From an uncultured Bacilli bacterium (GTDB lineage Bacteria; Bacillota_I; Bacilli_A; RF39; UBA660): DNA of 64,000 nucleotides. The position numbers were made by a program, and so were the translations under genes. Below, piece after piece: positions 17,337 to 18,880 of this stretch; the first letter of the stretch is position 1, and the number at the start of each line of letters is the position of its first letter. The notes below the pieces were generated by a model. That model was not told where the DNA came from. It saw nothing but the letters and a program-made list of their open reading frames with translations, and made no database searches. The stretch lies in contig CALVKN010000001.1 in assembly GCA_944332715.1 (NCBI GenBank), positions 13,415 to 77,414 of the forward strand. Reading direction: 5' to 3'.

Positions 17337-18464
17337 TTACCTTACTGTACTTAATTTTTCATATTCTTCTTTAAAAACATCTAAAAATTTATTTATTTCT
17401 TCAGTAGTTGTTACATAAGATAAACTAAGTCTAATTGTATGCTTACTTCGCTTTACATCATTATAAATCGCCATTACGCTGTGTGATGCTTCCCCACTTG
17501 CACATGCTGTATTAGTACTTAAATAAATTTCATATTTATCTAAAGCATGAATTAAAGTCTCTGGCATTACATTCATTACACTAAAATTCAATATATGAGG
17601 TATAGAATACTTAGTTTTATTTATTTTGATATTTGGATATTTTTCTAAAAAATTAACTACTTTTTCATTTAGTAAACTTACAAATCTTTCTCTTTTTTCC
17701 AAATCCGTTGTAGCAAGTCTTATAGCTTTAGATAAAGCAGCAATCAAAGGAAGTGGTGGAGTCCCTGGCTTAAGTTCATTACTTTTGCCAGATCCATAAA
17801 TAAGTGGTGTAATTTTAATCATACTACTTTTATATAAAAAACCAATTCCTTTAGGTCCAAATATTTTATGTCCTGACATACTTGCCAAATCAACATCGTG
17901 AAAATTAACAGAAACTTTTCCTATTGCTTGAGTCATATCAGAATGAAATAATGTTGCAATATTTTCCTTTTTTATTATTTGTCTTATCATCTTTAAAGGT
18001 TGTCTTACCCCTGTTTCACTATTTACAGCACAAATACTAACTAATATTGTATCATCTCTAACCTTTGCTTTTAAATCATCAAAATCAATTAATCCTTCTG
18101 CATCATTATTAACATAATCAATTGAAAAACCAATACTTTTTAAATAATCACATATAGCATAAACTGAAGGATGTTCAAGTTTTGAAACAATTATATGTTT
18201 TCCCTTACGATGATGAGCCATAGCAACCCCAATTATTGCCATATTATTTGCTTCAGTTGCCCCGCTGGTATAAACTATTTCACTGGCATTTACCCCAAAT
18301 ATATCAGCAATTTGCTTAGTGGCACTTTCAAGTAATTTTGCTGACTTCTCTCCTAAAGCATGAATAGAATTGGCATTTCCTATAAATTCTTTCGTAACTT
18401 TAGATATCGTATCTAATACTTCATATGATACTGGTGTCGTTGCACTATAATCTAAGTAAATCAA
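17337..18464 (-). CDS. cysteine desulfurase (class V aminotransferase, NifZ/IscS-like)
   Basis: PLP-lysine motif SMSGHKIFGPKG and active-site region TNTACASGE. Adjacent to thiI, as for B. subtilis nifZ. Confidence 0.85.
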   Translation of the reverse strand: MIYLDYSATTPVSYEVLDTISKVTKEFIGNANSIHALGEKSAKLLESATKQIADIFGVNASEIVYTSGATEANNMAIIGVAMAHHRKGKHIIVSKLEHPSVYAICDYLKSIGFSIDYVNNDAEGLIDFDDLKAKVRDDTILVSICAVNSETGVRQPLKMIRQIIKKENIATLFHSDMTQAIGKVSVNFHDVDLASMSGHKIFGPKGIGFLYKSSMIKITPLIYGSGKSNELKPGTPPLPLIAALSKAIRLATTDLEKRERFVSLLNEKVVNFLEKYPNIKINKTKYSIPHILNFSVMNVMPETLIHALDKYEIYLSTNTACASGEASHSVMAIYNDVKRSKHTIRLSLSYVTTTEEINKFLDVFKEEYEKLSTVR

Positions 18465-18478
18465 ATGTAAAACCTCCT

Positions 18479-18880
18479 TTAATTATTATTGTCTCTTAGA
18501 TCCTCTGCTTCTTCAATATAGTCATCACAAGTTGTACTCGTTGGATCTAATAAACATTCCTCACATTCTGTAATACCATCTAAATCTGCTACATTATCAA
18601 TTAAGTCAAAAACAACTTTTACAATGGTAGGAATAAAAAATATACAAACACCAACAATTAACCTTCTAAAAAGTGACATTGAAGCACTTTTAATAGCCTT
18701 ATCATCACTACTAGCTATAGCCTTAGCAAAATCAACAATTCCAAATATAATAATAATTAAAGGAACTAATATTTTAAGAGCAAAAAGCCCATATCCCACA
18801 AATTGCCATATTGCTGATGTTCTAAGACAAAAATCATTTTCTATTGCTATAACTTTTGGCATAAAATTCAATATATTCAT
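18479..18880 (-). CDS. stand-alone two-TM/4-Cys anchor module protein, 133 aa (family member 3)
   Basis: AGGTGA RBS. ...DFCLRTSAIWQFVGYGLFALKILVPLIIIIFGIVDFAKAIASSDDKAIK...LIVGVCIFFIPTIVKVVFDLI...CEECLLDPTSTTC. Confidence 0.65.
   Translation of the reverse strand: MNILNFMPKVIAIENDFCLRTSAIWQFVGYGLFALKILVPLIIIIFGIVDFAKAIASSDDKAIKSASMSLFRRLIVGVCIFFIPTIVKVVFDLIDNVADLDGITECEECLLDPTSTTCDDYIEEAEDLRDNNN
18588..18836. repeat. direct repeat, copy 2 (partner at 17041-17290)
   Basis: See copy 1. Together the two copies bracket the cysteine desulfurase gene. Confidence 0.9.

Follow-up and report, generated by a model that had tools for sequence, protein, structure and literature searches.

A 64,000-nucleotide (nt) window of contig CALVKN010000001.1 was analyzed, taken from the assembly of an uncultured Bacilli bacterium of the RF39 lineage (GCA_944332715.1; 1.53 Mb in 75 contigs, 90.5% complete). 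The G+C content of the window is about 28%. Three of its genes encode proteins that share a module of about 105 amino acids (aa) with two helices and four cysteines. The module stands alone in a 133-aa protein and is fused to other domains in proteins of 355 and 419 aa (Table 1). For the gene with the C-terminal module, a TTG start at 11492 would give 427 aa and an ATG start at 11468 gives 419 aa; the database twin of this protein, P0194, has 419 aa.

Table 1. Positions of the module genes and associated features in the window
Feature	Position	Strand	Basis or remark
Module-only paralog, 133 aa	18479-18880	minus	Open reading frame (ORF) list, alignment, genome search
355-aa paralog: N-terminal module, acidic/Pro/Asn linker, C-terminal Peptidase_C39_2-like domain	16267-17334	minus	
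Peptidase_C39_2-like domain, residues 197-322 of the 355-aa protein, predicted extracellular	16369-16746	minus	PF13529
419-aa paralog: lipoprotein signal, two beta-rich, Cys-rich ectodomains, C-terminal module	10209-11468	minus	
Module part of the 419/427-aa protein (FC ... CTDCLFDPFGDC)	10212-10550	minus	PF18895 match below cut-off, three-protein alignment
Terminator-like hairpin after thiI	14957-14975	minus	Closes the predicted unit ezrA / 133-aa gene / cysteine desulfurase / 355-aa gene / thiI
Terminator-like hairpin immediately downstream of the 419/427-aa gene	10166-10201	minus	Closes the predicted unit ackA / DHH / recX / module gene

The 133-aa protein starts with a short N-terminal tail without a signal peptide, followed by the dipeptide FC (C18), helix 1, a basic SSDDKA loop and helix 2 (FFIPT). 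Its tail has the form C106-x2-C109-LLDP-x4-C118 and closes with an acidic end. In an alignment of the three window proteins, the other two paralogs showed 78% and 49% identity to the 133-aa protein, and 50 columns were invariant, including F17-C18, K36, P40, the SSDDKA loop, FFIPT, C106, C109, L110, D112-P113 and C118. The motifs that a first-pass annotation had read from the DNA (FC, the KI(L/V)VPL helix, the SSDDKA loop, FFIPT and C-x2-C-L-(L/F)-D-P-x(3-4)-C) were all present in this alignment. A six-frame search of the whole assembly with the 133-aa protein returned the other window copies with E values of 4.3e-62 and 6.2e-25, indicating that the kinship of the modules is beyond chance. At the nucleotide level, the 133-aa gene matches the 5' part of the 355-aa gene with 85.4% identity across 355 nt, indicating that these two genes are a recent duplicate pair.

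The assembly contains six copies of the module, three in the window, two on contig C31 and one on contig C6. The three window genes had been described earlier as a paralogous family of three; their kinship holds, but the count does not. The C31 copies are a tandem pair of module-only genes (116 and 117 aa; E values of 2e-28 and 2e-27 in the six-frame search). The C6 copy is a distant paralog of 147 aa with a signal peptide, which was detected with an E value of 1.8e-7 by the single query and 6.7e-27 by a profile of the family. Four to six copies were present in each of the 18 genomes of the genus that were searched. With the family profile, 9,978 representatives of 50%-identity clusters were retrieved at E <= 0.001, 5,503 at E <= 1e-10 and 188 at E <= 1e-30. 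The related contigs come from metagenome-assembled genomes labelled as uncultured Bacilli, Tenericutes or Erysipelotrichaceae. No match to the 133-aa or the C6 paralog was obtained by tblastn in 72,556 plasmid records. Comparison thus established the homology of the module, the number of paralogs, their gene contexts, their conservation and their fused domains, which are described below.

The closest named family is PF18895 (T4SS_pilin), which comprises VirB2-like pilins of type IV secretion systems (T4SSs) and has a gathering cut-off of 26.6 bits and a profile of 71 positions. Residues 325-394 of the 427-aa protein matched profile positions 5-71 (E = 0.07, 13.7 bits), and in the 133- and 355-aa proteins PF18895 was absent at E <= 1. 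The C31 paralogs matched with E values of 1.7e-4 and 0.04, and the best score in the genome was 22.1 bits. The matches span positions 5-71 and 14-71 of the profile, that is, the whole two-helix hairpin with its short polar loop. A scan of the genome gave no place with a PF18895 match at E <= 1e-5. Among the 48 aligned family members, 14 matched at E <= 0.01 (best, 2.8e-6). The database relative P0043 bears a precomputed PF18895 label, and 2 of 30 neighbour clusters in a protein-language-model Atlas are named T4SS pilin (score 0.93).

The relation to PF18895 became clearer in related genomes. When 151 genomes of the class were scanned, the cut-off was passed in 16, among them 8 of the 13 other members of the same taxonomic family. 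The profile of the window family recovered 11/11 of the cut-off-passing ORFs from this taxonomic family (E values from 4e-20 to 2e-4, Z = 1e6) but 0/9 of those from other taxonomic families, and an hhalign comparison with eight PF18895 proteins from outside the taxonomic family gave a probability of 27% (E = 6.6e-4). For these reasons, we read the module as a divergent, cysteine-bearing branch beside PF18895 and not as a member by the Pfam threshold. The first-pass annotation had found no named family for the module; the cut-off-passing proteins of sister genera provide this link, and the outline resemblance to TrbC/VirB2-type pilins that it had noted reflects real kinship through T4SS_pilin. 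The TrbC/VirB2 family itself (PF04956) was absent at E <= 1 for all three window proteins, and the Mycoplasma family NF045849 (cut-off, 40 bits) was not listed for them. Kinship to rhodopsins or G-protein-coupled receptors was considered and rejected: the family profile matched PDB sequences only in rhodopsin TM5-TM6 at E >= 0.23, and the receptor families that appeared in Pfam scans are the same transmembrane-hairpin artefact.

An AlphaFold2 (AF2) model of the 133-aa protein (mean predicted local distance difference test score, 82.9) consists of a hairpin of two helices at residues 22-56 and 60-98 and further helices at 103-111 and 116-131. In this model, C18 stands four residues ahead of helix 1, and C106 and C109 lie 8-11 residues past helix 2. 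A complex prediction with four copies of the protein scored 0.00 and was run without controls, so that it speaks neither for nor against assembly into a larger structure.

The orientation of the hairpin in the membrane was approached through relatives of the module, for which the 193 best relatives were taken and 177 were anchored, the anchor motif being unplaceable in 16 of the 193. In many homologs a signal peptide ends just before FC. By a crude rule, a signal peptide was present in 43 of 116 module-first proteins; the other 73 start 3-17 residues before the cysteine or failed the rule. The lipobox of the 419-aa protein, L-[CS]-G-C, is kept in 9/9 aligned homologs. Across the 177 relatives, the loop has on average 4.7 K+R versus 2.4 D+E, and the C-flank has 2.5 versus 4.5. 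The basic loop, the acidic flanks and the signal peptides before FC together give good support for a topology with a cytoplasmic loop and both ends outside, in which the four cysteines are most likely extracellular. The same topology had been proposed at the outset, and the signal peptides, the lipobox and the charge bias all agree with it.

The cysteines are strongly conserved. C18 is invariant, and C106, C109 and C118 are each kept in at least 90% of the 48 aligned sequences; one cysteine before and three after the hairpin were found in 158 of the 177 anchored relatives. In sister genera there is one cysteine before and one after the hairpin, and PF18895 proteins of other taxonomic families have none there. 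The cysteine before helix 1 and a cysteine after helix 2 are kept together across the taxonomic family. A disulfide clasp between the N- and C-flanks, as suggested in the first-pass annotation, is plausible from this pattern.

The four cysteines could instead bind zinc. C18 and the C-x2-C...C tail would then form a tetrahedral metal site that joins the outer flanks without disulfides, and a C-x2-C pair with two further cysteines is kept in 158/177 relatives. Classical disulfide machinery was also not detected: DsbB, VKOR, DsbA-like Thioredoxin_4 and Redoxin were all not found in the 90.5%-complete assembly. Moreover, the sequencing runs and related records with matches point to an animal-gut habitat, and the gut is largely anoxic. 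Yet the sister genera keep one cysteine per side, which suits a single disulfide better than a zinc site, and other exported proteins of this genome are Cys-rich. The genome also encodes one candidate thiol oxidase, a 194-aa protein on contig C43 (locus L076, 1228-2365) that combines a cytoplasmic zinc ribbon and a single membrane helix with a linker rich in Asn and Thr and a CSHC-bearing thioredoxin fold. This membrane-anchored protein is a candidate exported thiol oxidoreductase, and its existence also argues for disulfides. We consider a zinc clasp rather unlikely. The gene following the 194-aa gene encodes a 177-aa protein with the same zinc ribbon start, which continues as a multi-helix membrane protein.

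The domains fused to the module are diverse. The C39-like domain of the 355-aa protein matched PF13529 with an E value of 3e-6 (28.3 bits; cut-off, 24). The cysteine of GCMI and the histidine of QHYMALLD are kept in 5/5 C39-like fusion proteins that were aligned and presumably form the catalytic pair. Comparison of this domain with PDB sequences gave only a spurious repeat match to WD40 designs, which was discarded. In the AF2 model of the 419-aa protein (mean pLDDT, 73), residues ~23-145 and 170-290 are beta-rich and residues 315-396 form the helical hairpin. No known fold was found for its ectodomain by Foldseek (best E, 0.03; root-mean-square deviation, ~20), and there was no usable Atlas match; nine homologs of this protein were found. 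Of the 177 anchored relatives, 110 consist of the module alone; in the others it is C-terminal (43), N-terminal (23) or internal (1). A scan of 57 long relatives identified a named partner domain in 12 and PF18895 only in 1, and the remaining 44 were without any match. The named partners were GDSL (5), other esterase-type domains (2) and one each of Amidase_3, C39_2, M23, M15_4 and Big_2; by these assignments they are mostly enzymes predicted to act on the cell wall or on esters. The top match, P0048, has the same length as the 355-aa protein and carries an amidase in place of the C39 domain.

Fusions to Amidase_3, M23, M15_4 and C39-like domains, together with two transmembrane helices and a charged tail, are what would be expected of a holin-like or release-anchor module whose helices control the export or activation of the fused peptidoglycan hydrolases. 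The rest of the evidence makes this explanation very improbable. None of the six paralogs matched a PHROG holin at E <= 0.01, the sole match being to a tape-measure segment (E = 0.0024), and the gene contexts are not those of a phage. In most relatives the module stands alone or is joined to non-lytic ectodomains, and the predicted topology would keep the hydrolase permanently outside.

The window copies are located among housekeeping genes. Their neighbours encode RecX, a DHH/DHHA1 protein, acetate kinase, ThiI, a class-V aminotransferase of the cysteine desulfurase type and EzrA, and these family assignments agree with the interleaving reported in the first-pass annotation. The gaps between module genes and neighbours are 2-20 nt; the 133-aa gene, for example, starts 7 nt past the ezrA stop and ends 14 nt before the start of the cysteine desulfurase gene. 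A terminator scan detected five terminator-like sites, compared with 2.2 expected, and none between any module gene and its housekeeping neighbours. The only such hairpins on the strand of the module genes are those after thiI and after the 419-aa gene. Because no terminator-like hairpin separates them from their neighbours, the module genes look embedded in two housekeeping transcription units. Promoter-like matches were not above chance (71 versus 80 in shuffles). The best one of the region (11492-11520, minus strand; TTGATA, 17-nt spacer, TATAAT, 11/12) lies inside the terminal part of recX, shortly before the ATG at which the 419-aa gene would start. This gene may also have its own promoter, promoter-like matches overall being at chance level. 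In a library recorded as metatranscriptomic, available as contigs only, six small matching pieces were found, none with more than 35 nt inside a module gene; the three other runs compared probably consist of DNA.

The position of the module genes differs between species. In the relatives G011, G015 and G009, recX is followed by a gene for a module protein whose ectodomain varies. A module-only gene lies between ezrA and the desulfurase gene in seven species, upstream of the desulfurase gene in an eighth and between thiI and ackA in two; it is missing from the ezrA/desulfurase/thiI run in G011. The gene combining module and C39-like domain was found between the desulfurase gene and thiI only in this genome and in G002. 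One gut-metagenome contig joins position 16249 to 17337 with nine other letters between them and skips 1087 nt, exactly the 355-aa gene, indicating that this gene is present or absent between close relatives. Between thiI and ackA there is also a 65-aa ORF (14467-14664, minus strand) without a family match. Its counterparts at the same place in the relatives G004 and G005 show 68-70% identity, and it may therefore be a real small gene.

Embedding in housekeeping operons without a separating terminator-like site, together with a slot that shifts between species, would be expected if the module were a plain two-helix anchor, a descendant of T4SS pilins that holds exoenzymes and surface domains independently of any machine. 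The varied enzymes fused at either end of the module are consistent with this, as is the lipobox that the 419-aa protein has besides its hairpin. The conservation of the module, however, goes beyond the needs of an anchor, with 50 invariant columns, a fixed loop motif and a fixed cysteine pattern. In addition, the module-only forms (110/177 relatives) have nothing to anchor, and a plain anchor would not be expected to head a T4SS operon, as a paralog does on contig C6. A plain anchor is somewhat unlikely on this evidence.

The tandem pair on contig C31 ends a Tad-like operon (locus L007, 1-5844). This operon encodes RcpC/SAF-like proteins (two of them RcpC-like), a T2SSE ATPase, two membrane proteins, two small Cys-rich pilin-like proteins (89 and 80 aa, both starting with MKEATGELN), two TadE-like proteins and a 331-aa protein that was called ParA-like from its sequence alone, with no family match. 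The pair directly follows the ParA-like gene in this genome and in G011, and also, by coordinates, in 5/5 further genomes of the genus. The family might thus serve a Tad/Flp-type pilus as accessory subunits, the window copies being spare subunits. However, the named relatives of the family are T4SS pilins, the most diverged paralog heads a T4SS operon and not a Tad operon, and to our knowledge no known Tad system uses a VirB2-like protein. A Tad role for the whole family therefore appears distinctly unlikely. Divergent from the tandem pair, a gene on the minus strand (L007, 6013-7563) encodes a protein of 516 aa that contains a membrane helix, a region rich in Ser, Thr and Asn and a stretch of some 30 Asn residues; it has no Pfam match and only 39% identity to its G011 counterpart.

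The C6 paralog heads an eight-gene monoderm T4SS operon (locus L008, 9769-20000, and locus L049, 1-1795). The paralog is followed in order by genes for a VirB6-like protein (TrbL; MMCAP2_0566 and Mbov_0396 families), a VirB3-like protein (TcpE/PrgI), a 184-aa protein, VirB4 (595 aa; Mbov_0397 family, E = 2e-102), an M23+lysozyme hydrolase, a 299-aa protein and VirD4 (CD1115 family, E = 8e-86). On either side of the operon lie ordinary genes, encoding a CmpB-like protein, a Hydrolase_2 wall hydrolase, a rhodanese, a DedA-type protein, MscS and DapF, and no relaxase and no DDE transposase gene is located beside it. Genes of 106, 184 and 595 aa (L008, 12351-14992) map consecutively to positions 2-96, 96-276 and 294-891 of the 894-position Mbov_0397 model, indicating that the VirB3-VirB4 unit is split three ways here. 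Residues 41-103 of the VirB6-like protein (L008, 10223-12331) gave a weak PF18895 match (E = 0.0041), and this protein may begin with a pilin-like hairpin.

The VirB4 gene was present in 55 of 56 genomes of the genus, including 34/34 high-quality ones, with 84-97% identity. Within the taxonomic family it was found in 112 of 121 genomes, no two of them from the same genus (64-82% identity, ~600 aa), and in an order-level draw in 142 of 151 genomes. Longer VirB4 types with 25-35% identity occur sporadically across the genus and family genomes, and we take them to be ordinary mobile elements. In 16 of the 18 genus genomes, VirB4 follows the T4SS-type paralog on the same strand at a distance of no more than 3.5 kb; the remaining two have the matches on separate contigs. 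In the sister genera represented by G070, G109 and G055, the corresponding operon is headed by a gene for a protein that passes the PF18895 cut-off; this gene and the VirB4 ortholog downstream of it share a strand and are 2.9-3.7 kb apart. With VirB4 in 55/56 genus and 112/121 family genomes, the C6-type T4SS looks like a conserved core system of genomes of 0.5-1.7 Mb and not like a mobile element.

Four relaxase families were searched for in this genome, and only Mob_Pre was found, on another contig (486 aa; contig C15, locus L050, 565-2025, minus strand). Within the genus, 5 of 56 genomes gave a match to this protein, usually a fragment, and the gene therefore probably belongs to a sporadic mobilisable element. 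The first-pass annotation had stated that VirB4, VirD4 and relaxase genes are absent. For VirB4 and VirD4 this is correct within the window but not for the organism, which has both in the C6 operon.

We consider it slightly better than an even bet that the module proteins are VirB2-like pilin hairpins with both ends outside and tied by cysteines, which act as surface scaffolds and most likely work with the T4SS that is core to the taxonomic family. Three elements of this explanation are inferred: the topology, the cysteine linkage, and a partnership with the T4SS as opposed to the Tad-like pilus or no machine at all. On insertion into the membrane, both ends of the module would come to lie outside and the basic SSDDKA loop in the cytoplasm. 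Proteins with a signal peptide or lipobox would use Sec; where only 3-17 residues precede the first cysteine, the protein would enter as a hairpin with a short N-terminal tail. The cysteine before helix 1 and a cysteine after helix 2 would tie the outer flanks, most likely by a disulfide, and a second bond may form within the C-x2-C...C tail. The hairpin would hold whatever is fused at either end on the cell surface, which would be a C39-like cysteine peptidase and a lipid-anchored beta-rich ectodomain here, and amidases, M23 and M15 peptidases and GDSL esterases in relatives. The dispersed paralogs may be accessory pilin-like subunits or anchors that bring wall-cutting enzymes and adhesin-like domains to the contact site. 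Their cooperation with the T4SS is suggested by the finding that almost every carrier of the expansion has retained a chromosomal T4SS operon resembling that of mycoplasma ICEs (integrative and conjugative elements), with a module paralog as its first gene and no adjoining relaxase gene.

Several results weigh against this explanation. No window protein reaches the cut-off of PF18895 or any other Pfam or NCBIfam cut-off for the module, and the window-family profile and hhalign gave little beyond the taxonomic family, as described above. Foldseek found nothing in the PDB for the module model at E <= 0.001, and in a wide VIA structure search the top Z score was 7.9 (the transmembrane hairpin of HtrII), with generic helical hairpins throughout; searches with this model say nothing for or against a pilin fold. 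Among the copies in this genome, only the C6 paralog stands beside the T4SS. There is no T4SS gene near the window copies, which lie in housekeeping operons in slots that differ between species, and the tandem pair is tied to the Tad-like operon and not to the T4SS in 7/7 genomes examined. The classical disulfide enzymes were not found in the 90.5%-complete assembly, and the gut habitat indicated by the records would likely be a low-oxygen setting for disulfides. Finally, the 419-aa protein would be held by a lipid at one end and by the hairpin at the other, so that a fixed anchor fits it better than a subunit pulled into a pilus.

The surface-scaffold explanation can be taken further. The core T4SS, which has no relaxase gene next to it, might build a VirB2-type pilus-like structure through the Gram-positive wall, in which a cysteine bridge replaces cyclisation and the subunits carry hydrolases, esterases or adhesin-like domains. 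The machine would then serve cell-to-cell contact (uptake, attack or dependence on neighbours), a role that has been proposed for Patescibacteria, and not self-transfer of a mobile element. We regard this extended proposal as tentative and, on the present evidence, fairly improbable.

The predicted architecture is similar to that of TrbC/VirB2 proteins (PF04956) in the signal peptide, the two helices, the location of both ends outside and the basic cytoplasmic loop, and also in heading a T4SS operon, which applies to the C6 paralog only. T-pilin and the TrbC of RP4 are head-to-tail cyclic peptides, and a cysteine tie of the N- and C-flanks would here do the job that cyclisation does there. The proteins differ in that this tie would be made by cysteines and not by a peptide bond and in the Gram-positive envelope, and any pilus built from the module is hypothetical.

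Compared with the Mycoplasma integrative and conjugative element (ICE) represented by Mbov_0395 (NF045849), the C6 operon mirrors the order of a pilin-like gene, an Mbov_0396/MMCAP2_0566-like protein and an Mbov_0397-like VirB4. One C31 paralog matched NF045849 weakly from end to end (E = 0.0034, 17 bits, against the cut-off of 40), and the C6 VirB4 scored 343 bits against the curated cut-off of 590 for Mbov_0397. The Mbov_0397 ATPase is a single model, whereas three genes of 106, 184 and 595 aa correspond to it here. The Mycoplasma ICE is a mobile element; in contrast, the T4SS described here is core to a bacterial family and has neither a DDE transposase nor a relaxase gene alongside.

A 2025 review states that VirB2 has not been found among Gram-positive T4SSs, Patescibacteria excepted (PMC12857230), and a second paper makes the same statement (PMC12102498). 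That paper reports a core T4SS in the reduced genomes of Patescibacteria, which resembles the present case as a chromosomal monoderm system without a nearby relaxase gene (PMC12102498). PF18895 and the VirB2-like arrays of Patescibacteria share with the module the two hydrophobic helices and the short polar loop, and the arrays also resemble it in the presence of several sequence-divergent paralogs per genome. The window proteins differ from PF18895 by scoring under the Pfam cut-off. PF18895 proteins outside the taxonomic family have no flanking cysteines, whereas the module has one before and one to three after the hairpin. In Patescibacteria the pilins lie in one array; here they are scattered in housekeeping and Tad-like operons, and the module differs further in its many enzyme fusions and its Bacilli host.

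Searches of the published literature on RF39, PF18895/T4SS_pilin and the Mycoplasma ICE found nothing on a cysteine-bearing branch or a core T4SS in these Bacilli. The present analysis contributes a cysteine signature, the scattering of copies over housekeeping and Tad-like operons, the fusions to enzymes, and genome counts by which the T4SS is core to the taxonomic family. A Bacilli lineage that has both a pilin-like gene family, itself widespread in gut metagenomes, and a core T4SS would be a second, independent group beside Patescibacteria. It raises the question of whether a single-membrane bacterium can build a VirB2-based structure, and that of the role of a core T4SS without a neighbouring relaxase gene in a reduced genome. 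The cysteine signature makes the family accessible to a simple biochemical approach, disulfide mapping. The enzyme fusions point to a use of pilin-like hairpins as a scaffold for surface display, and it may be that some Gram-positive bacteria present enzymes and adhesin-like domains by means of pilin-like proteins.

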